From the NCBI RefSeq assembly GCF_047602625.1, contig NZ_JASGGV010000002.1, positions 441,734 through 505,733 on the forward strand: a stretch of DNA of 64,000 bases, written 5' to 3'. The translations under genes and the position numbers were made by a program. The notes beneath the pieces are model-generated. The model did not search any database. It saw only the letters and a program-made list of their open reading frames with translations, and was not told where the DNA came from. This document shows, piece by piece, positions 2,748 to 26,043 of this stretch (position 1 is the first letter of the stretch; the number at the start of each line of letters is the position of its first letter). This stretch comes from Aestuariivirga sp. GTDB taxonomy: Bacteria > Pseudomonadota > Alphaproteobacteria > Rhizobiales > Aestuariivirgaceae.

Positions 2748-2758
2748 CAGGATTTCGC

Positions 2759-3256
2759 GTGGCAAAACCCGTTTCTGACGTCGCCATCATCATGGGCAGC
2801 CAGTCCGACTGGCCGACCATGAAGCACGCCGCCGACACACTGAGCGAGTTGGGCGTAGCCCATGACACGCGCATCGTCTCGGCCCACCGCACGCCCGACC
2901 GCATGGTGGAGTTCGCGAAATCCGCCAAGGCGGCGGGCTTCAAGGTGATCATTGCGGGTGCTGGCGGCGCGGCGCATCTGCCCGGCATGACCGCCTCCAT
3001 GACGCCGCTGCCGGTGTTCGGCGTGCCCATTGAATCGAAGGCGCTGTCGGGCAAGGATTCGCTTCTTTCAATCGTACAGATGCCGGCGGGGATTCCGGTT
3101 GGAACGCTGGCCATCGGCAAATCTGGCGCGGTGAATGCCGCCCTCCTCGCGGCAGCCGTGCTGGCGCTTTCGGATGACAGGCTGGCGGCGCGGCTCGAAG
3201 CCTGGCGCGCCAAGCAGACTGCCGCCGTGGCCCATGCGCCGGTGGACGCCTCCTGA
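2759..3256 (+). CDS. purE: N5-carboxyaminoimidazole ribonucleotide mutase
   Basis: [17 protein letters not shown]...SAHRTPDRM...[14 protein letters not shown] are canonical PurE motifs. GTG start with AGGA upstream. Confidence 0.95.
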
Positions 3257-4341
3257 TGCGGCTGGAGACGCCTCTTCCGCCCGGCTCCACCATCGGCATT
3301 CTGGGCGGCGGCCAGCTTGGGCGGATGATCGCCCTGGCCGCAGCCCCGCTTGGCCTCAAGACGCATATTTACGCCCCCGAAGCTGACAGCCCGGCGTTTC
3401 AGGTTTCGGATGCCCGCACCATCGCGCCTTATGAAGATCTGGATGCGCTGGATGCCTTTGCCCGCGCTGTCGATGTCATCACCTATGAATTCGAGAACGT
3501 GCCGGGCGAGACGGCGGCGTTTCTCGAAGACCGCAAGCCCTTGGCCCCCGGCTCTCTCGCGCTCAAGACGGCGCAGGACCGGGTGGATGAAAAGACCTTC
3601 ATCGCCTCCCTCGGCATTCCCGTGGCGCCCTTCGCCGCCGTCGATGATGAAACCTCGCTGGGTGCCGCCATTGCCCGCACCGGACGGCCGTCGATCCTGA
3701 AAACCCGCCGCTTCGGCTATGACGGCAAGGGGCAGGTGGTGATCCGCGAGGGCGACGGCATTCTCGAAGCTTTTGACGCCATCGGGCGGCAGCCGGCAAT
3801 TCTCGAGGGCTTCATTTCCTTTGACCGCGAAATCTCGGTGATCGCCGCCCGCGGCTGGGACGGCGGGATTGCGGTCTATGACGTGCCCGAGAACGTGCAC
3901 CGCAATGCCATTCTCCACACCTCGACTGTTCCCGCCGCGATTCCGCCTGCCCTTGCCGATGAGGCGCGGGAGATCGGTGGCCGCATCATCGCGGCGCTGG
4001 ATTATGTGGGTGTCATCGGCATCGAGCTGTTTGCGGGCGAAGGCGGCCTGACGGTGAATGAGATTGCGCCGCGCGTTCACAACTCAGGCCACTGGACCAT
4101 GGATGCCTGCATGGTCTCGCAATTTGAGCAGCATGTGCGCGCCATCTGCGGCTGGCCGCTGGGCAATCCCGCCCGCCATTCCAACGTGGTGATGACCAAT
4201 CTTCTGGGCGATGACGCGCACCAGTGGCAGGCCCTTGCCGCCGAGCCAAACTTGGCCCTTCACCTCTATGGAAAGGCCGAGGCGCGGCCCGGCCGGAAAA
4301 TGGGTCATGTCAACCGCCTGACCCCTCGACAGGGCAGATAG
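3256..4341 (+). CDS. purK: N5-carboxyaminoimidazole ribonucleotide synthase (ATP-grasp)
   Basis: IGILGGGQLGRM N-terminus, ATP-grasp core and ...APRVHNSGHWT motif. TGATG overlap with the purE stop. Confidence 0.95.
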   Translation: MRLETPLPPGSTIGILGGGQLGRMIALAAAPLGLKTHIYAPEADSPAFQVSDARTIAPYEDLDALDAFARAVDVITYEFENVPGETAAFLEDRKPLAPGSLALKTAQDRVDEKTFIASLGIPVAPFAAVDDETSLGAAIARTGRPSILKTRRFGYDGKGQVVIREGDGILEAFDAIGRQPAILEGFISFDREISVIAARGWDGGIAVYDVPENVHRNAILHTSTVPAAIPPALADEAREIGGRIIAALDYVGVIGIELFAGEGGLTVNEIAPRVHNSGHWTMDACMVSQFEQHVRAICGWPLGNPARHSNVVMTNLLGDDAHQWQALAAEPNLALHLYGKAEARPGRKMGHVNRLTPRQGR

Positions 4342-4367
4342 CCTATGCTATGCCGCCGCCACTTCCG

Positions 4368-4388
4368 GGGCCCCTAGAGGGCCCTTTT
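4368..4388 (+). terminator. putative intrinsic terminator after purK
   Basis: GGGCCC-ctaga-GGGCCC hairpin followed by TTTTG. Confidence 0.5.
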
Positions 4389-4419
4389 GCCCGTTCAACA
4401 CGAAATTCGAGGTTATCGC

Positions 4420-4677
4420 TTGCAAGTCGTCGTCCGTGACAACAATGTCGATCAGGCCCTCAAGGCGCTCAAGAAAAAGATGCAGCGCGAGGGCATTTTC
4501 CGCGAGATGAAGCTGCGCGGCCATTACGAGAAGCCCTCCGAGAAGAAGGCCCGCGAAAAGGCGGAAGCCGTGCGCCGCGCCCGCAAGCTGCAGCGCAAGA
4601 AGCTGCAGCGCGAAGGCCTGCTGCCCATGCCGAAGAAGGTAGAAATGCCCGCCCGTGGCCCCCGCGGCCCGCAATAA
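4420..4677 (+). CDS. rpsU: 30S ribosomal protein S21
   Basis: (L/M)[30 protein letters not shown] is a typical S21 N-terminus. TTG start at 4420 with GAGG 7 nt upstream. The ORF-track start at 4387 is probably too far upstream. Confidence 0.9.
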
Positions 4678-4762
4678 GCATTCGGCCATTCAGGTTTCCG
4701 GGGCCGCCCTTGATGAAAGGCGCGGCCCCAATTGTTTCATAAGGCAGGTACATGGTCGGGCC

Positions 4763-5950
4763 ATGCCGCGCGCCCTGCTCCTGTTGCTGCTGATTCTCTT
4801 CGCCCTTCCCGCGCGGGCTGATGACACGGCCGCGCTTCAGGCCACGCTCGACGCCGGAAAAACCGTCACGCTGGAGCCCGACCGCACCTATCACATCCGC
4901 CGCAGCCTGGCGATCCGCCACGCCGGAACGGGCATCATTGGTGATGGCACCGCAACGCTTGTGATGGATTCGGACGCCGGGGCCTTCGACAACGCCTCGG
5001 CTTCCGCGCGCGACCGCTATGGGCCGAACGCCGTGGGCATCATCGCGCGCGGAATCGACCGGCCCATCGTGCAGGGGGTGCGGATTACCTATGCGGGCGG
5101 CATCGATGACCGCTATGTGAAGGCCATCGCCTTCCGCGATTGCACCAATATCGTTCTCGACCACAACGAGGCGTGGAATTTCACCAAGTCCTGGGGAATT
5201 CTCTACATCGGCGGCAGCACCGGCGGCAGCGTGAGCTTCAATACCATCCGCGACAGCACCACCAATTCTTTTACCTTCGGCCAGATCACCGGCATCGAGT
5301 TCGACAATGACGACAAACCTTCTTCGCAAATTCGCGTCGAGGGCAATGACATTCACGATCTCACGGTGGGGCCGCAATTCCTCAAGATGTTTGGATACCA
5401 GACCGACGGCATAAACACCGTGCGGCAGGGCACATCGCATCTGGTGATCGTAAACAACCGCATCAACCATGTGGGCGAGGCCATCGATCATTTCGGCAAC
5501 AGCAGTAGCATCACTGGCAACCGCCTCTCGCGCTGTTATAATTTCTGCATCAAGCTGATCCACGGCGCGCGCTTCAATTTCGTGCGCGGCAACCAGATCA
5601 GTGGCGCCGGGCTGGGCGGCATCGTGCTCGCGGTTTCGGCAAAGAGCCCGCAGGATACGCTGGGCAATGTCATCACCGGCAATGTAATTTCAGGCATCGA
5701 TCCCGACCATGCCTGGGCAGGCCACCCGGCCTTCGGCATCGGGCTGATGTCGGCACCCGGCGCGGCTTTTGGCTCACGCAACAACCGGATCATCGGCAAT
5801 CTGATCGATCTCAGGAACACCGGAGCCATCGGCCTGCGCGCCGTGGGCCGGAGCGGCGCCGGCAATTGCTTCCGCGCCAATATCGTGCTGCACGCCCGCA
5901 TCCGCGCCACATGGCTCAACCCGTCCGTGGCGAATTGCCGGGCTGAATAG
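4763..5950 (+). CDS. secreted right-handed parallel beta-helix repeat protein (pectate-lyase fold)
   Basis: Signal peptide MPRALLLLLLILFALPARA. Repeated N-x-I-x-G-N / GNxI turns (NNRINH, GNRLS, GNQISG, GNVITGNVISG, NNRIIGNLI). Confidence 0.8.
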   Translation: MPRALLLLLLILFALPARADDTAALQATLDAGKTVTLEPDRTYHIRRSLAIRHAGTGIIGDGTATLVMDSDAGAFDNASASARDRYGPNAVGIIARGIDRPIVQGVRITYAGGIDDRYVKAIAFRDCTNIVLDHNEAWNFTKSWGILYIGGSTGGSVSFNTIRDSTTNSFTFGQITGIEFDNDDKPSSQIRVEGNDIHDLTVGPQFLKMFGYQTDGINTVRQGTSHLVIVNNRINHVGEAIDHFGNSSSITGNRLSRCYNFCIKLIHGARFNFVRGNQISGAGLGGIVLAVSAKSPQDTLGNVITGNVISGIDPDHAWAGHPAFGIGLMSAPGAAFGSRNNRIIGNLIDLRNTGAIGLRAVGRSGAGNCFRANIVLHARIRATWLNPSVANCRAE

Positions 5951-5952
5951 GC

Positions 5953-6651
5953 TTACTCCGCCGCCACCAGCTTGCCGGTGAACACAACAGGCCCCGTGGG
6001 CTGGCCGGTGGGAGATCCCCCTTCCGGCTCCAGGCTGACGGCAAACACGGTGGCGCCTAGCGCCGCGCTGTCGGCCTTTCCGAGTTGCGATGAGGGAATG
6101 CGGAAATCGGCGTTGAGAACGCCAAGCGATTGCGGCTTCTCGCGCCCTGCCCCCAGCGCCCAGAGCTCATAGGATTTGCCCTCCGGCAATTGCGCCGTGA
6201 CGGGCCTGACCGTGATGGTGCCACGCGCCGTATCGACGGACGCGAGAAACGCTGGTCCCGGCCCATCGGCCTGCAGCACCGCGACGAAGCGCTGCCCCTG
6301 TGGCTCCGGCTGGGGCTTCAGGATCATCAAACCGGTAAGCGCCGCCGCCAGCGCCATTGCGCCCACGGCAATGCTGCGCCAGCAGTTCACGCGGCGCGTG
6401 AGGTCGATGACGGTTGCCGATGTGTCACCACAGCCGATGGCCGCCATGACGCGGGCTTTCAGATGCGCGGGCACCGGAACGGAGAGCAATGCCTCGGAGA
6501 GCGGAAACAGCCGCCGCTCCCACTGTGCCACGGCAGAAGCAAGCGCAGGATTGCCGGTCATTTCCTGATCAACTGCAGACCGTTCGGCGGCGTCCAGCGT
6601 GCCCAGCGCATATTCGGCGGCGAGGCCTTCGATTTCGTCATCAACGGCCAT
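5953..6651 (-). CDS. anti-sigma factor, RskA (anti-sigma-K) family
   Basis: N-terminal anti-sigma helix (LAAEYALGTLDAAERSAVD), a central TM helix, and a C-terminal YELWALG...SLGVL...VSLEPEGGSPTGQPTGPV pattern typical of the RskA domain. Overlaps the sigma gene stop by 11 nt. Confidence 0.85.
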   Translation of the reverse strand: MAVDDEIEGLAAEYALGTLDAAERSAVDQEMTGNPALASAVAQWERRLFPLSEALLSVPVPAHLKARVMAAIGCGDTSATVIDLTRRVNCWRSIAVGAMALAAALTGLMILKPQPEPQGQRFVAVLQADGPGPAFLASVDTARGTITVRPVTAQLPEGKSYELWALGAGREKPQSLGVLNADFRIPSSQLGKADSAALGATVFAVSLEPEGGSPTGQPTGPVVFTGKLVAAE

Positions 6652-21242: not shown

Positions 21243-22622
21243 ATGCGCCACGCCGCATTGACCGCGATCCATCTTCCCGATTTCGGCAACCCCAAAACAG
21301 AGCCGGCACTTTCGCGCGAGATTTACGCCGCGCGGCTCGAACGTCTTGAAAAGGCTATGGCAGCCGCAGGTTATGACGCGCTTGTGATCTATGGCGACCG
21401 CGAGCATGTGGCCAATATTGCATGGTCCACCGGCTATGATCCCCGCTTTGAAGAAGCGATCTGCGTTATCGTGCCGGGGCGGAAGCCCACGCTGTTCGCC
21501 GGCAACGAGGGTTACCCTTACGCCGAATGCGCCAATGGCGTCTTTGAGCGCGTGTTGTGGCAGCCTCTCAGCCTGATGAGCCAGCCGCGCGATAAATTCC
21601 GTGTACTGAGCGATCTTCTGGCGGAAGCAGGAGTGAAGAAGGGCCAGCGCATCGGCCTTGCCGGGTGGAAGGGTTTTGAGAGCGAGGATGGGGTGTTCGA
21701 TCCGCAGTGGTTTGAAACACCGGCTTATCTCGTGGAGGCGCTGCGTGCCTTTGGGCCTGTCTCCAATGCGGCGCTTCTATTCATGGATCCGTCCACGGGC
21801 CTGCGCGCCATCAATGAGGTGGATCAGCTCGCCTGCTTTGAACATGCGGCCACCCTCACCTCCTCTGCGATCTCCCGCGTGATCAACGGCACCAGGCCGG
21901 GGATGACAGAATACGAGAGCGTGAGTCTCATGAAGCTCAACGGCTTTCCGCACTCCACGCACATCAACATGTGCGCAGGGCCGCGCGCCAGATATGGCCT
22001 GCCCAGCCCCTCCATGCGGGTGATCGAACCGGGCGACCCGATCGTCGTCGGCTTCGGGCTGATGGGCGCGTTGAACTGCCGGGCAGGCTTCATGGTGCGT
22101 GACGAAAGTGAGTTGCCGCCAGCCATCCATGACTATGTGAAGAAACTGGTTGCGCCATACTTCGAGGCCGCCGTGGCGTGGTATGAAACGGTGGGCATCG
22201 GCGTCACAGGCGGCGCGATCCATGATGCCGTCATGTCGCGCCTAGGCGATCCGTTCTTTGGCATCGGCCTCAATCCCGGCCATCTCATCCATCTCGATGA
22301 ATGGATGCATTCCCCCATCCGCAAAGGCAGCACCCGCAAGCTTGCCTCCGGCATGGCGATCCAGTGCGACATCATTCCCGCCACCGGCACAGACTACTTC
22401 ACCAGCAACATCGAGGATGGCATTGCGCTTCTGGATGATGCAGGGCGGCGGGACTTTGCGGTGCGTTACCCGGAAGCCTGGCGCAGAATCGAAGGCCGCC
22501 GCGCCTTCATGATCGAGACGCTGGGCATCAGGCTGAAACCGGAAGTGCTTCCCTTCAGCAATATCGCGGGCTGGCTGCCACCCTTCTGGCTGAACCCCGG
22601 CATGACGATGGCGATGCGGTGA
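21243..22622 (+). CDS. M24 (creatinase/Xaa-Pro peptidase, pita-bread fold) family protein; canonical metal ligands not evident
   Basis: N-terminal creatinase-like domain (YDALVIYGDREH...) and C-terminal pita-bread pattern (EPGDPIVV...GIGLNPGH...SNIEDGIALL). The two Asp ligands of the GDxVxxDxG...D motif appear substituted. Confidence 0.7.
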   Translation: MRHAALTAIHLPDFGNPKTEPALSREIYAARLERLEKAMAAAGYDALVIYGDREHVANIAWSTGYDPRFEEAICVIVPGRKPTLFAGNEGYPYAECANGVFERVLWQPLSLMSQPRDKFRVLSDLLAEAGVKKGQRIGLAGWKGFESEDGVFDPQWFETPAYLVEALRAFGPVSNAALLFMDPSTGLRAINEVDQLACFEHAATLTSSAISRVINGTRPGMTEYESVSLMKLNGFPHSTHINMCAGPRARYGLPSPSMRVIEPGDPIVVGFGLMGALNCRAGFMVRDESELPPAIHDYVKKLVAPYFEAAVAWYETVGIGVTGGAIHDAVMSRLGDPFFGIGLNPGHLIHLDEWMHSPIRKGSTRKLASGMAIQCDIIPATGTDYFTSNIEDGIALLDDAGRRDFAVRYPEAWRRIEGRRAFMIETLGIRLKPEVLPFSNIAGWLPPFWLNPGMTMAMR

Positions 22623-23612
22623 TCAGAACGCGCGCTCGCGCACCTGCGTCACGAGCGCCCGCGCAGCCCTGGGCCATGGATCATATCGCGCGATTAACCC
22701 TTCTCGCCCGCCAAAAATTCCGATTCCCGCCGCCACGCGCTGGGATGAGAAATCCCATGTGTTGCCGCCGGCATTGATCTCGATGGCGTAATGCTTGCCG
22801 GTTCCGTGCTCTGTCAGGATATCGCAGGCCTGAAGCGGGATGGACGGAAAGGCGGTCGTCATGCGCCGCGCAAACGCAATCACATCATCCGGCACATCAT
22901 AAGAAATGCCGTCCGCCGCATCGAAGGCCCGCGCCACCGCCCCCATGCGGGGATCGACGGCGATGCGCTCAATATCCTCATCGGACGCTTCCAGACTCAC
23001 GCGCGGGATGGGGCTGAACACCTTCATCCACAGCAGCGGTTCGCCAAACAAAGCCAGCACGCGGTAATAGGCGGGGTTGGGGCCGGTATCGATAAACTGC
23101 TGCACCAGCGCGGGAGCCTGCCGCAGGAAGTGGGTTTCCGGAAAATCTGGCGGCCGCAACTCAGCCAGCTTCCGGGTGCGGAAAAGTTGCAGCGAGTTGG
23201 CAAAGGAGGATTTGCCAAGCGGCAGCGTCTTCAACACCGCCAGCGGGCCAAAACAATCCTCGCGATAGGCCGTTCCGAACGAAAATCGTTCCGTGAATGG
23301 GGTGGCGATGCCCAGCGCAGCAAAGCGGGCATGCTGATCCTGTTTTTTGATCGGGCGATTGGCCAGCAGTGGGCCGCGCGGAGGCACGAACCGTTTGGTA
23401 TCGGAAAAACTCACCGTCAGGCTGGGAAGACGCCACTTATAGGCCGGGACAATATCCGCCGTATCCTGCGGCGTCACGATGTGAACCAGGATGCCGGGGT
23501 CGAGTTTTACAATTTCCCGTGCAATTTCAAGGAAATCCTCGAAGGACTGCCGCCCGGCCGCCTGCACGAGAACGAGCAACCGCTTGCCTTCATGTCCGGA
23601 CGCTGGACTCAC
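22623..23612 (-). CDS. ATP-grasp-like protein of unknown specificity
   Basis: AVLKTLPLGKSS..., ALVQQFID...YYRVLALFGEP..., and LQACDILTEHGTGKHYAIEINAGGNTWDF resemble the K-loop, the QxFI and the D-x-x...E-x-N segments of ATP-grasp ligases. GTG start. Confidence 0.6.
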   Translation of the reverse strand: MSPASGHEGKRLLVLVQAAGRQSFEDFLEIAREIVKLDPGILVHIVTPQDTADIVPAYKWRLPSLTVSFSDTKRFVPPRGPLLANRPIKKQDQHARFAALGIATPFTERFSFGTAYREDCFGPLAVLKTLPLGKSSFANSLQLFRTRKLAELRPPDFPETHFLRQAPALVQQFIDTGPNPAYYRVLALFGEPLLWMKVFSPIPRVSLEASDEDIERIAVDPRMGAVARAFDAADGISYDVPDDVIAFARRMTTAFPSIPLQACDILTEHGTGKHYAIEINAGGNTWDFSSQRVAAGIGIFGGREGLIARYDPWPRAARALVTQVRERAF

Positions 23613-23778
23613 GCTGAAAATCTGCCGCTCACTTCATCAATCAGCTTCTGATTACCGCTGACCGTGGCAGCAATGCAACGGTAGCGCGAAACCGCACTGT
23701 TTCTACCCGCGACCCCCTTGATTGCGAAACCGGGAATGTTAGTCTTCCTCCATAATTATAAAATCAGGGAAATATGCG

Positions 23779-23925
23779 ATGAACATTGGACCTGTTGTGC
23801 CTGTGCCATTCGACTGGATTTTGCCGGAGTTCGACGGTCCGGTTGTGCCGCCGCCCGGAATTGGGCCGGTTGTTCCACCAACCATCGGTCCTGTAGTACC
23901 CGGCAATGGACCGCTGATCCCGTAG
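23779..23925 (+). CDS. 48-aa Pro/Val/Gly-rich peptide with four GPVVP repeats (MNIGPVVPVPFDWILPEFDGPVVPPPGIGPVVPPTIGPVVPGNGPLIP)
   Basis: ATG at 23779 with AGGGA 8 nt upstream and an in-frame stop upstream at 23740. The four GPVVP copies differ only at third codon positions. An intrinsic terminator follows. Below the 60-aa cutoff of the ORF track. Confidence 0.6.
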   Translation: MNIGPVVPVPFDWILPEFDGPVVPPPGIGPVVPPTIGPVVPGNGPLIP

Positions 23926-23953
23926 GAATCGCTTTTTCACTGTAAGATGAAAA

Positions 23954-23979
23954 GGGCCGCAAAGCGGCCCTTTGTTTTT
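23954..23979. terminator. bidirectional intrinsic terminator
   Basis: aaaa-GGGCCGC-aaa-GCGGCCC-tttgttttt. Serves the small ORF on the + strand and the EF-G-like gene on the - strand. Confidence 0.65.
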
Positions 23980-23982
23980 GCC

Positions 23983-26043
23983 TTATGCCGCTTCGGACTT
24001 CCGCGCTTGCACCACCTGATCGGCGGCGCGCCCCGTCAACTCAGCCATATGGTCGTGCACATAGGTAAAGGTGCCGACGCCGGATGTGGCGGAGCGCAAT
24101 TCCACGATCAGCGATTCCATCTCCGATTCCGGCATGTGGGCCTTCACCGTATCCCAGCCGGGCCAGCCATCGCGGCCGTCGAAGCCCAAAAGCTGCCCCC
24201 GGTGCCCGGTAACGATCTGGTTGACGCGCGATGTCGCCTCGCTCGGCACGTGAATGTCAGCGGCCACGATCGGCTCCAGCAGCACGGGCGAACAGGCGGG
24301 CATGCCTTCGCTCATGGCAATGCGTGCCGCCGTCTTGAAGGCCATCTCGGATGAATCGACGTCGTGATACGACCCGTCTGACAGGTTCACCGCGAAATCG
24401 ACCACGCTGAAACCCAGCGGCCCATGCGGTATCCATTCGCGGATGCCGGATTCGACTGCCGGAATGTATTGCTTCGGCACCACGCCACCGGTGATCGTGT
24501 CGCTGAACACAAATCCTTCGCCACGTGGCAACGGTTTGATTTCCACCACGATGTCGCCGAACTGGCCATGGCCGCCGGACTGCTTCTTGTGCCGCCCGCG
24601 CACCTGGGTGGATTTGCGGATCGTCTCCTTGTAGGCGATGCGCCGCGGCCTCGCCTGCGCCTTTACACCGAACTTTCCTTCCAGCCGTTCAAGCGCCACG
24701 CGCAGGTGCATTTCACCCTGCCCCCACAGCACCATCTCATGCGTATCGATATTGTTTTCCAGCCAGAGAGAAGGATCTTCCTCGATCAGCTTGGCGATGG
24801 CACTGGTGAGCTTCACCTCATCCTTGCGGTCAGCCACCGAAAGCGCCAGGCCATAAACAGCAGGCGCACGCGAAATATCCATGAGCTGCAGCGTGGAGCC
24901 TTTGACTGTCGAAATGGTCTCGCCGGTTGCGATACCTTCCAGGCGGCCAATCGCCACCGTGTCGCCAGCCTGCGCCCTGGCCGTTTTATTCGGAGTTTGC
25001 CCCATCAGCGTGAACAGTCCGGCGGCGCGCGCATCCTGCCCTTGCCCGCCGTAGAACACTGCTCCATCGGCAATCTCGCCCTGCAGCAGGCGGGCAAGCG
25101 ACAGCTTGCCGCCATGCGCGGTGTGAAATGTCTTCAGCACCTGCGCCACCGCACCGCTATTGGCCTTGAGGCCAAGGCGCTTCGCGGTATCGGCCACACC
25201 CGGCGCTTCATGGCGCAGCGCCTTCAAAAGGCGCCCCACTCCGTTTCCGTGTTCGGCTGAGCCGAAAAGCACCGGCGTGATCAGCCCGTCCGCCAATTCG
25301 CGCGATAGGTCGGCAAACACCCGGTCGCGCGGTGGCTCAAGATCAGACAGCAATTGCTCCATCAACTCATCGTCATGATCAGCCAGCCGTTCCAGCATGG
25401 CGAACCGCTCGCTCTTTTCGAGTGCCGCGACATCGACAGGCATGTCAACGACCGTGCTCTCGGCGTGTTCGCGGTAAACGAAGGCCCGCTCCAGCGCGAG
25501 ATCGACAAAGCCGGTGACAACGCCGTTCGTCCAGATCGGCAATTGCCGGAGGATCAGGGGCTTCGAACTTGCAGGTTGCAGCCATTCCAATACGTCACGC
25601 GGGCTGACGGTGGATTTGTCGATCTTGTTGATGAACAGCAGCCTCGGAACATCCAGTTCATCGAGTTGCTTGAGAATGAGCTGCAGCGCCGCGGCTTTCT
25701 TGTCATCCGCCTCACACACGACGATTGCCGCGTCGCATCCCGCCAGCGCCGCGCGCTGTTCCTGTGAAAATTCAATGGAGCCTGGGCAATCAAGAAACGT
25801 GTAGCTGTCGCCCATGAATTGCGTGGTGGCGGCATTGAGTTCGACGCTCATGCCATGGGCGCGCGCTTCCGGCGCGCCGTCGCCAACCGTTGATTTTTCG
25901 GAAACCTTGCCCTGCCGCGCGATGGCGCCGGTCCGGAACAATATTGCTTCAAGAAGCGTGGTCTTACCGCCGAGATAGGGGCCCACAAGCGCAATGCACC
26001 GCGAGCCCTGGGCTCGTCTACCGGTGTTCGAATCCATGGCCAA
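23983..26043 (-). CDS. elongation factor G-like GTPase (EF-G paralogue)
   Basis: 686 aa. G domain (VGPYLGGKTTLLEAILF, DCPG, NKIDK) followed by EF-G domains II-V. AAGGAGGA SD. Confidence 0.88.
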   Translation of the reverse strand: MAMDSNTGRRAQGSRCIALVGPYLGGKTTLLEAILFRTGAIARQGKVSEKSTVGDGAPEARAHGMSVELNAATTQFMGDSYTFLDCPGSIEFSQEQRAALAGCDAAIVVCEADDKKAAALQLILKQLDELDVPRLLFINKIDKSTVSPRDVLEWLQPASSKPLILRQLPIWTNGVVTGFVDLALERAFVYREHAESTVVDMPVDVAALEKSERFAMLERLADHDDELMEQLLSDLEPPRDRVFADLSRELADGLITPVLFGSAEHGNGVGRLLKALRHEAPGVADTAKRLGLKANSGAVAQVLKTFHTAHGGKLSLARLLQGEIADGAVFYGGQGQDARAAGLFTLMGQTPNKTARAQAGDTVAIGRLEGIATGETISTVKGSTLQLMDISRAPAVYGLALSVADRKDEVKLTSAIAKLIEEDPSLWLENNIDTHEMVLWGQGEMHLRVALERLEGKFGVKAQARPRRIAYKETIRKSTQVRGRHKKQSGGHGQFGDIVVEIKPLPRGEGFVFSDTITGGVVPKQYIPAVESGIREWIPHGPLGFSVVDFAVNLSDGSYHDVDSSEMAFKTAARIAMSEGMPACSPVLLEPIVAADIHVPSEATSRVNQIVTGHRGQLLGFDGRDGWPGWDTVKAHMPESEMESLIVELRSATSGVGTFTYVHDHMAELTGRAADQVVQARKSEAA

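Follow-up and report, generated by a model that had tools for sequence, protein, structure and literature searches.

Small ORF and genetic context

The DNA analysed here, referred to as the window, is a stretch of 64,000 nucleotides from Aestuariivirga sp. (contig NZ_JASGGV010000002.1), and the subject of this report is a 48-codon open reading frame (ORF) that it carries on the + strand (23779..23925; ATG at 23779, TAG at 23923-23925). The ORF encodes MNIGPVVPVPFDWILPEFDGPVVPPPGIGPVVPPTIGPVVPGNGPLIP, in which 15 of the 48 residues are proline. A Shine-Dalgarno (SD)-like AGGGA (23766..23770, +) lies 8 nt 5' of the ATG, and the upstream in-frame stop is the TAG at 23740. All these features had been listed in a preliminary description made from the sequence alone, and all were confirmed. 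The small ORF is very likely to be a real + strand gene, belonging to a family of microproteins that are linked to an ATP-grasp gene.

The ORF diverges from a gene for a 329-aa protein (22623..23612, -), the conserved partner gene of the family, which was identified as an ATP-grasp-fold enzyme by AlphaFold2 (AF2) modelling, Foldseek and invariant residues. The 166 bp between the two genes (23613..23778) constitute a putative common divergent control region, made of a conserved block and an AT-rich stretch. On the other side, an intrinsic-terminator-like hairpin with a T tract (23951..23980, +) separates the ORF from a convergent gene for an elongation factor G (EF-G) paralogue (23983-26043, -). 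The 329-aa gene is itself convergent with a Creatinase_N + Peptidase_M24 gene of the prolidase/aminopeptidase-P superfamily (21243-22622, +), and the ends of the two genes abut (22622/22623).

Within the ORF, the pentapeptide GPVVP is encoded four times on the + strand: by GGA CCT GTT GTG CCT (repeat 1, 23788..23802), GGT CCG GTT GTG CCG (repeat 2, 23836..23850), GGG CCG GTT GTT CCA (repeat 3, 23863..23877) and GGT CCT GTA GTA CCC (repeat 4, 23887..23901). Repeat 2 opens GPVVPPPGIG, the window's version of the family core, and a PPPG polyproline motif occupies codons 24-27 (23848..23859, +). The peptide contains one Thr, three Asp/Glu (all outside the repeats) and no Ser, Arg, Lys, Cys or His; its net charge is about -3 and its C-terminus is GPLIP. 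Inspection of the N-terminus revealed nothing signal-like, in agreement with the earlier statement that a signal peptide is lacking. The preliminary description had also placed the ORF in an AT-richer pocket: this is true of the upstream control region (49% GC over 23613-23778 and 37% in its AT-rich stretch, 23730-23780) and not of the ORF itself, which has 59% GC, against 61% for the window.

Selection on the reading phase

The four GPVVP copies are identical at all first and second codon positions (10/10) and variable at all third positions (5/5), exactly as had been described. The degenerate pattern GGNCCNGTNGTNCC matches four times in the window, each time within the small ORF, where 0.19 matches are expected; a count of four was reached in none of 100 shuffles.

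For codon-level comparison, the orthologous locus was taken from L001, a 50-kb metagenome contig of the Joint Genome Institute (JGI) that encodes P0003, a protein 86% identical to the 329-aa neighbour. A further contig, L008, is identical to L001 in the small-ORF region and was not treated as independent. The L001 locus is syntenic with the window (EF-G paralogue, small ORF, 329-aa gene, M24-like gene, LysR, TrxB), the DNA having diverged by about 15-20%, and its small ORF, gene-called in the same frame, encodes the 39-aa orthologue P0001 (MAMNIGPVVPVPLNSILPELDGPVVPPPPGIGPVVPPVN). The ATG, the SD and the N-terminus MNIGPVVPVP are conserved in both.

Substitutions between the window and L001 were counted by codon position. 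In the alignable first 106 nt of the small ORF, positions 1:2:3 differed 4:2:16 times (binomial P=1.8e-4 for at least 16 of 22 differences at one codon position). The flanking coding sequences gave 32:24:133 (329-aa gene) and 32:14:242 (EF-G paralogue); the 166-bp intergenic region gave 14:11:12 and the DNA 3' of the small-ORF stop gave 3:5:6. Two indels lie within the ORF, one of +3 nt (an extra Pro) and one of -21 nt (one whole repeat unit, so that repeat 4 is missing in the orthologue), and a net 2-nt indel lies just 5' of the ATG. From the 3-periodic substitutions and the in-frame indels, we infer that this reading phase has been under purifying selection since the window and L001 lineages split.

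These data also bear on the reading that no gene exists here, and that the repeats form a DNA-level array (protein-binding or produced by slippage) or are the remnant of a larger Pro-rich gene, left open by chance. The missing annotation in the source genome, the very narrow host range and the atypical GC content at third codon positions (GC3) would all suit it. An array of DNA repeats would not vary solely at every third base (5/5 variable columns), nor would it keep a 3-periodic divergence between species; moreover, other lineages encode the same peptide motif by different DNA with their own ATG and SD, and no larger protein with the repeat was found among 1.84 billion representative sequences. 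The non-gene reading is thus very improbable, and the DNA-level element without frame conservation that the preliminary description had named as a possible refutation is strongly disfavoured by the periodic divergence and by the recoding of the motif elsewhere.

Assignment of the strand

As a matter of method, wobble-only variation cannot on its own separate a frame from an antisense frame with the same third positions. It therefore could not pick the strand here, because the third positions of a 55-aa antisense ORF (23739-23906, -) coincide with those of the + frame. This ORF reads GTTGP four times, and the Gly, Thr and Pro codons of GTTGP are also four-fold degenerate. The preliminary description had used the wobble pattern to favour the + frame over overlapping ORFs of 75 and 68 aa, both of which exist, and had overlooked the antisense ORF, which the wobble alone fits equally well. 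Its conclusion that the + frame is real and selected was nevertheless borne out, by the 4:2:16 ratio (P=1.8e-4), the multiple-of-3 indels and the analogous GPxxP ORFs of relatives.

A gene on the - strand at 23739-23906, encoding a 55-aa GTTGP-repeat peptide, would account for both the repeat wobble and the 4:2:16 ratio as well as the + frame does, and it would run in the same direction as the ATP-grasp and EF-G paralogue genes. The ratio of non-synonymous to synonymous substitutions was tried as a strand test and dropped: synonymous and non-synonymous counts made by hand were about equal for both frames, with about five amino-acid changes each.

The + strand was assigned because its ATG and SD are conserved, because the antisense frame is interrupted in two relatives and because the 2-nt indel shifts the antisense ORF. 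The internal stops, found in L095 and L006 where the sense frames are open, are the most decisive of these observations (the relatives are described below). The antisense ORF begins at a TTG with no good SD, its start lies at non-homologous sites in the window and in L001, and the 2-nt indel turns its C-terminal 15 residues in the window into an unrelated tail of 46 residues in L001. In L002 and L095, the antisense frame reads unrelated GSGP or GRGP motifs where the sense frame retains GP[LV]xP. The JGI and Logan gene calls picked the sense frame for P0001, the L003 ORF and the L095 ORF, and the terminator on the small-ORF side, being on the + strand, supports the sense orientation. An antisense gene as the selected frame is consequently a very remote prospect.

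Database and literature searches

The small ORF is absent from the source annotation (the query did not match itself) and from the annotation of a related metagenome-assembled genome (MAG) by the Prokaryotic Genome Annotation Pipeline. A word-indexed search of 5.8 billion proteins with the 48-aa peptide returned only the 39-aa orthologue P0001, as did an exhaustive phmmer search of 1.84 billion representatives, which yielded no larger repeat protein, and a search of the 5.8 billion proteins with a profile of three family peptides. The peptide has no family in Pfam, NCBIfam or PADLOC, and plasmid and viral-contig searches gave no match. These results agree with the earlier remark that no family with a GPVVP repeat was known. 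When metagenomes were scanned with the peptide alignment, L008 alone was recovered, and a genome-contig scan with the 329-aa protein gave no close relative. No defence-system match was obtained in PADLOC for the ATP-grasp enzyme, DUF6065, the peptide or the M24 gene. Literature searches found nothing relevant on DUF6065 or on Pro-rich precursors of ATP-grasp ribosomally synthesised and post-translationally modified peptides.

Family members in relatives

Distant members of the family came to light on contigs where less similar homologues of the 329-aa protein are encoded. In L002 (Aestuariivirga sp. MAG GCA_046294715.1) and L003 (a Logan contig), where the enzyme homologue is 53% identical, a 49-aa ORF encodes MNVNSTFLSGGPLPPPGISDGPLPITPPALGPLPPEPPALGPLQPPVGN, with four GPLxP units at an exact period of 10 residues. 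In L095/L096 (enzyme 51% identical), a 77-aa ORF encodes four GPLPP units and the segment GPLPPPGIG. The small ORF of L006 encodes MNNDHMSAVRSGPMVPTPPPPPPPTGIRAP, and that of L007 encodes MNGPITTPPVIEMNGPIKPPP, followed by a poly-C run past which the shifted frame continues with LGIELNGPLRPLPPTM. All these ORFs lie divergently upstream of a DUF6065 gene and an ATP-grasp homologue. Of the homologous GPVVP microproteins that the preliminary description had proposed to look for, sequence searches gave the orthologue P0001, and the linked family ORFs came from the contigs of relatives.

In all six lineages that carry it, the small ORF stands head-to-head with the ATP-grasp operon, 110-170 bp from the operon start, and in all six its ATG is preceded by GGAG, GGGA or GGGG, 6-13 nt upstream. 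The family ORFs are of 30-77 aa with two to four GPxxP units, and a core GP[VL]xPPPGI[GS] is common to four members. The PPPG seen at first in the window proved to reflect a trait of the whole family, all members containing one PPP run or more (PPPG, PPPPG, PPPG, PPPG, eight consecutive Pro and KPPP). Five of the six begin with 'MN', and the first repeat of the window starts at residue 4, a comparison made on few sequences. As in the window, the repeat copies of L002 and L095 differ mainly at third codon positions.

Pairwise BLASTP with composition adjustment, as single comparisons, gave E=0.003 for the window and L002, E=0.001 for L002 and L095, and E=0.049 for the window and L095. This similarity is weak when taken alone, and becomes persuasive in combination with the conserved position. 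The family ORFs were the only matches when the fetched DNA with a GC content of at least 55% (522 kb) was filtered in all six frames for ORFs of 25-120 aa with a PPP run, two or more GPxxP units and a Pro content of 22% or higher. These criteria were set when the L002 example was already known.

The C-terminal residues of the family are P, N, N, I, P and A, with relatives ending in ...PPVN, ...PPVGN and ...VPPDI. Because L001 and L002 both end in ...PPV(G)N, the GPLIP tail of the window may be a recent read-through extension. The TGA that ends the L001 ORF corresponds to GGA, codon 44, in the window (23904-23925 region), and the next 12 nt, CCGCTGATCCCG, are identical in both.

The presence of the small ORF was scored in 13 independent ATP-grasp gene lineages, six of which carry it. 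It was found in all four loci with DUF6065 and ATP-grasp (L002, L006, L007, L095); among the loci with ATP-grasp and no DUF6065, it was found in the window and L001 (2/2), which are close relatives of each other, and in none of the seven others (L004, L089, L093, L094, L097, L100, L104). The preliminary description had suggested asking whether homologues co-occur with the ATP-grasp gene: analogous GPxxP ORFs do adjoin neighbour homologues of 51-53% identity, and in all 6/13 lineages of the enzyme gene carry the ORF.

One lineage without the ORF shows how it was lost. L089-L092 share the SulP...Top1B context of L006, and alignment of L089 (3716-4200) with L006 (2250-3650) revealed a deletion of about 1 kb with a 58-nt inversion, as one event. 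The deletion took the Pro-rich ORF, DUF6065 and the first 22 ATP-grasp codons, and leaves a truncated product of 304 aa.

DUF6065 genes also occur elsewhere. Those on L102 (Sinorhizobium medicae pSMED01) and L103 (a Niveispirillum plasmid) encode proteins about 48% identical to the L002 copy, and neither an ATP-grasp gene nor a Pro-rich ORF lies near the DUF6065 genes of these Sinorhizobium and Niveispirillum replicons. DUF6065 genes were found on rhizobial megaplasmids/chromids in 68 PLSDB records, mostly unannotated in the PLSDB gene tables.

The 329-aa ATP-grasp neighbour and DUF6065

The 329-aa protein has no Pfam or NCBIfam match; among 53 members of the neighbour family, 11 match R2K_3 (PF14243) weakly and others match RimK, ATP-grasp_3 or ATPgrasp_ST. 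AF2 with the 53-sequence alignment gave a model of high confidence (predicted local distance difference test, pLDDT, 91.7; predicted TM-score 0.90), and the single-sequence AF2 model (pLDDT 37) was not usable. Foldseek with the alignment-based model returned 166 PDB matches at E<=0.001, of which the top 50 are all ATP-grasp enzymes. The best matches, at probability 1.0, are D-Ala-D-Ala ligases (Ddl), LysX/ArgX, DcsG, RimK and inositol-phosphate kinases, and the matches include LysX/ArgX-LysW and RimK-RpsF (S6) complexes (5k2m, E=4.4e-10; 3vpb, 5zk6, 5zct). For LysX/ArgX and RimK, the TM-scores were 0.44-0.56 and the identities 13-17%. The residues K127, D263, E277 and N279 do not vary among the 53 aligned sequences. 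By its modelled fold and its K/D/E-x-N residues, the neighbour is a member of the ATP-grasp superfamily, and because these residues are invariant, it is probably an active enzyme.

The R2K clade (CDC123/R2K.1, R2K.2, R2K.3) consists of predicted protein/peptide ligases whose targets are unknown, and R2K.3 is defined by having ExGD instead of ExN in the final strand of its kinase-like domain (Burroughs et al. 2015, PMC4431377). The neighbour family resembles this clade as a predicted ligase family with weak R2K_3 matches, and departs from R2K.3 in keeping ExN (E277-I-N279). Placement in R2K.3 was therefore rejected and the protein was filed under the ATP-grasp superfamily only. A search of the text of PMC4431377 revealed no description of a small Pro-rich ORF linked to R2K enzymes.

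In four lineages, the DUF6065 gene comes first in the ATP-grasp operon. DUF6065 has no detectable relation to solved structures. On L100 (887-1732; also on L101), the gene ahead of an ATP-grasp homologue of 41% identity encodes, instead of DUF6065, a protein of 281 aa, which has a weak match to 2OG-FeII_Oxy_3, a prolyl-hydroxylase-type family (E=0.0066). A relation between DUF6065 and this 2OG-oxygenase-like protein was tried with hhalign and rejected (probability 0.2%). Since neither a structural nor an hhalign relation was detected, a prolyl-hydroxylase role for DUF6065 is pure speculation. L094 carries tandem paralogous ATP-grasp genes (2749-3711 and 4001-4969), the upstream one with a weak R2K_3 match (E=0.003).

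Control region, terminator and the question of translational control

Within the control region, identity to L001 is about 88-90% in the block at about 23649-23730 and so exceeds that of the flanking coding DNA; an inverted repeat, CGGTAGCGCGAAACCG, lies in this block. No Rfam match came close to a gathering score even when the threshold was relaxed, the matches all falling on the terminator hairpin, and folding of the intergenic block on both strands revealed no unusual stability (z -0.4 to -0.5). As the block is conserved above coding DNA, has no Rfam match and has no unusual fold, it is probably a shared operator or promoter.

The preliminary description had noted an intrinsic terminator after the ORF, and a terminator-like structure was indeed found: a hairpin of 10 pairs (7 of them G-C) at 23951-23973, followed by GTTTTTG. 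It starts 25 nt past the small-ORF stop, is conserved in L001 and is the sole terminator-like site in the region; because the small ORF and the EF-G paralogue converge on it, it may serve both strands. The L095 ORF likewise has a hairpin with a T run. The small ORF is monocistronic in each of the lineages, with a convergent gene next downstream.

This arrangement bears on the reading that translation itself matters, the ORF acting as a PPPG sensor whose EF-P-dependent or Pro-tRNA-dependent stalling controls the locus, as in Salmonella mgtP. Ribosome stalling that depends on EF-P is strongest at PPP and PPG motifs (e.g. PMC4176338). With its consecutive Pro codons, a PPP run conserved throughout the family and a short ORF of variable length and C-terminus, the family resembles the mgtP-type leaders of Salmonella mgtCBR. 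Those leaders are same-strand 5' leaders with alternative RNA structures, whereas the small ORF is on the strand opposite to the ATP-grasp operon, lies in no gene's 5' leader and shows none of the alternative RNA structures looked for by folding. Because it is monocistronic, with the convergent gene next and the terminator of the window so close to its stop, nothing lies downstream to be attenuated, and the geometry excludes a classical attenuation or leader role. In addition, the repeats retain Gly and hydrophobic residues in three to four copies, which stalling does not require; these conserved positions point to a function that lies in the peptide itself. The stalling sensor is accordingly an improbable explanation.

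Proposed function and comparison with known systems

We propose that the product of the small ORF is an acidic, intrinsically disordered microprotein of 48 residues, built of G-P-hydrophobic-x-P units, and that it represents a small, hitherto undescribed family in Aestuariivirga-like Hyphomicrobiales. Under this proposal, it would be translated in vivo, and one bidirectional control region would drive, and presumably co-regulate, both divergent transcription units. The microprotein may serve the ATP-grasp enzyme, and DUF6065 where that is present, as a dedicated peptide substrate or as a binding partner, an assignment that we make tentatively and hold at somewhat less than even likelihood. Each GPxxP repeat could then be a recognition or modification unit, and the ATP-activated group would be one of the few carboxylates, either that of the C-terminus or that of the Asp/Glu found between the first two repeats. 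The assignment was suggested by the persistent head-to-head pairing, which is maintained where the enzymes are only 51-53% identical and all other neighbours differ, and by the closest structural analogues of the enzyme, which ligate onto small proteins. More specifically, the GPxxP microproteins might be precursors or scaffolds of a new class of modified Pro-rich ribosomal peptides, with the ATP-grasp ligase and DUF6065, maybe acting on prolines, as an enzyme pair without precedent; this extension is rather unlikely and, if true, would provide DUF6065 and this ATP-grasp family with a first substrate.

The module was compared with known pairs of peptide and ATP-grasp enzyme. Precursors of the graspetides plesiocin and thuringinin are multi-core, with several tandem copies of a short conserved motif. 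Like the graspetide loci (microviridin, plesiocin), the window locus has a short peptide gene beside an ATP-grasp gene, a linkage seen in six lineages, and the peptide likewise has tandem copies of a short motif. Graspetide cores are closed by side-chain ester or amide macrocycles between Thr/Ser/Lys and Asp/Glu, whereas the GPVVP and GPLPP repeats contain neither donor nor acceptor. The conserved N-terminal leader of a graspetide is recognised by the ligase; no leader motif is visible in the family and, on the few sequences compared, the window peptide seems to leave little room for a typical leader. Graspetide precursors are also co-directional with the enzyme gene, from which the small ORF is divergent, and no graspetide ligase was identified as a close match to the enzyme, the weak Pfam affinities of which are to R2K_3, RimK and ATP-grasp_3.

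The best structural matches of the 329-aa model include the LysW/LysX (ArgX) and RimK/S6 pairs, in which an ATP-grasp ligase acts on a small protein. LysW is a zinc-ribbon protein whose acidic tail reads EDWGE, and the C-terminus of S6 is Glu-Glu. Unlike LysW, the microprotein has no Cys or His and no folded domain, and it ends in GPLIP, so that only the enzyme similarity is common to the two systems. RimK extends the C-terminal Glu of its substrate with poly-Glu, and no member of the small-ORF family ends in Glu. The module thus resembles pairs of peptide and ATP-grasp enzyme and lacks the defining substrate features of graspetides, LysW and RimK. Because the nucleophiles and acidic tails of known ATP-grasp substrates are missing and the enzyme often occurs alone, the substrate step in particular is put forward conditionally. 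Proline-rich antimicrobial peptides are cationic, Arg/Pro-rich (PRP motifs) and made as a secreted pro-peptide; the window peptide differs from them in having no Arg or Lys, a charge of about -3 and an N-terminus that is not signal-like.

The coding and family evidence would be the same if the small protein were no substrate at all, and were instead a stand-alone microprotein of polyproline-II type, such as a regulator or inhibitor of the ATP-grasp enzyme or a ligand for some other protein, that is co-regulated with the ATP-grasp locus or hitch-hikes beside it. The lack of conserved reactive side chains and of a conserved C-terminus in the peptides agrees with such a role, as do the seven of 13 lineages in which the ATP-grasp gene occurs without the ORF. 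The head-to-head position retained at 51-53% enzyme identity despite differing other neighbours speaks against it, as do the joint loss of the ORF and DUF6065 in L089 and the absence, in the searches made, of any such ORF away from an ATP-grasp gene. We regard this reading as unlikely, and retain the substrate or partner model as the working proposal.

Several observations weigh against a gene whose product serves the ATP-grasp module. The family is known from six lineages only, all of them MAGs or metagenomes; its similarity is weak and of low complexity, and the profile search recovered P0001 alone from 5.8 billion proteins. Codon-level comparison was possible for one lineage only (L001 = L008), where the ORF stops nine codons earlier (GGA to TGA) and has one repeat fewer, so that the C-terminal third is dispensable or variable. 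The small ORF has a GC3 of 57%, against 70-74% in the neighbouring genes, and the control region has no sigma-70 consensus match. The peptides carry neither a conserved nucleophile (Lys, Ser, Thr, Cys) nor a conserved C-terminus. Judged from gene content, the enzyme is not strictly dependent on the small ORF, which seven of the 13 lineages do without, and no DUF6065 lies in the 64-kb window. Frame breaks in orthologous loci had been named in the preliminary description as a possible refutation; the indels within the L001 ORF are in frame (but the stop is earlier), and the L007 copy (L007:2264-2381, -) may be frameshifted at its poly-C run and may be decaying.

The small ORF is a concrete example of a missed small gene that is supported by comparative evidence. 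If the linkage is functional, it offers a substrate or partner for a divergent ATP-grasp clade of predicted peptide ligases and for DUF6065, both of which are currently without a function. Under the same condition, the peptide chemistry would be new to ATP-grasp systems, since the Gly-Pro-hydrophobic repeats combine a polyproline core with a lack of classical nucleophiles. The conserved PPPG core also makes the gene naturally suited to report on translation that depends on EF-P in these alphaproteobacteria.

Flanking genes and additional observations

The EF-G paralogue matches NCBIfam NF009379 with 1008 bits and is 84% identical to Aestuariivirga MAG copies. Relatives with 58-63% EF-G identity have unrelated downstream genes and no Pro-rich ORF. 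Because the downstream genes differ in these relatives, the block of small ORF, ATP-grasp and M24 genes has the appearance of a lineage-specific insertion, flanked by the EF-G paralogue and LysR-TrxB. The contigs with the closest EF-G copies (84%), L009 and L013, end 27 nt past the gene (L009:5556-5582) or inside it, and the region downstream of the EF-G paralogue may be hard to assemble or variable in Aestuariivirga. The M24 prolidase-like gene and the EF-G paralogue were each considered as functional partners of the small ORF and rejected, both adjacencies being confined to the window and L001.

On L007, a region with an IS630-type transposase (3178-4115) lies between DUF6065 and the ATP-grasp gene, and three tandem ORFs of 85-94 aa with Peptidase_S74 matches (5484-6373) are found 3' of the ATP-grasp gene.

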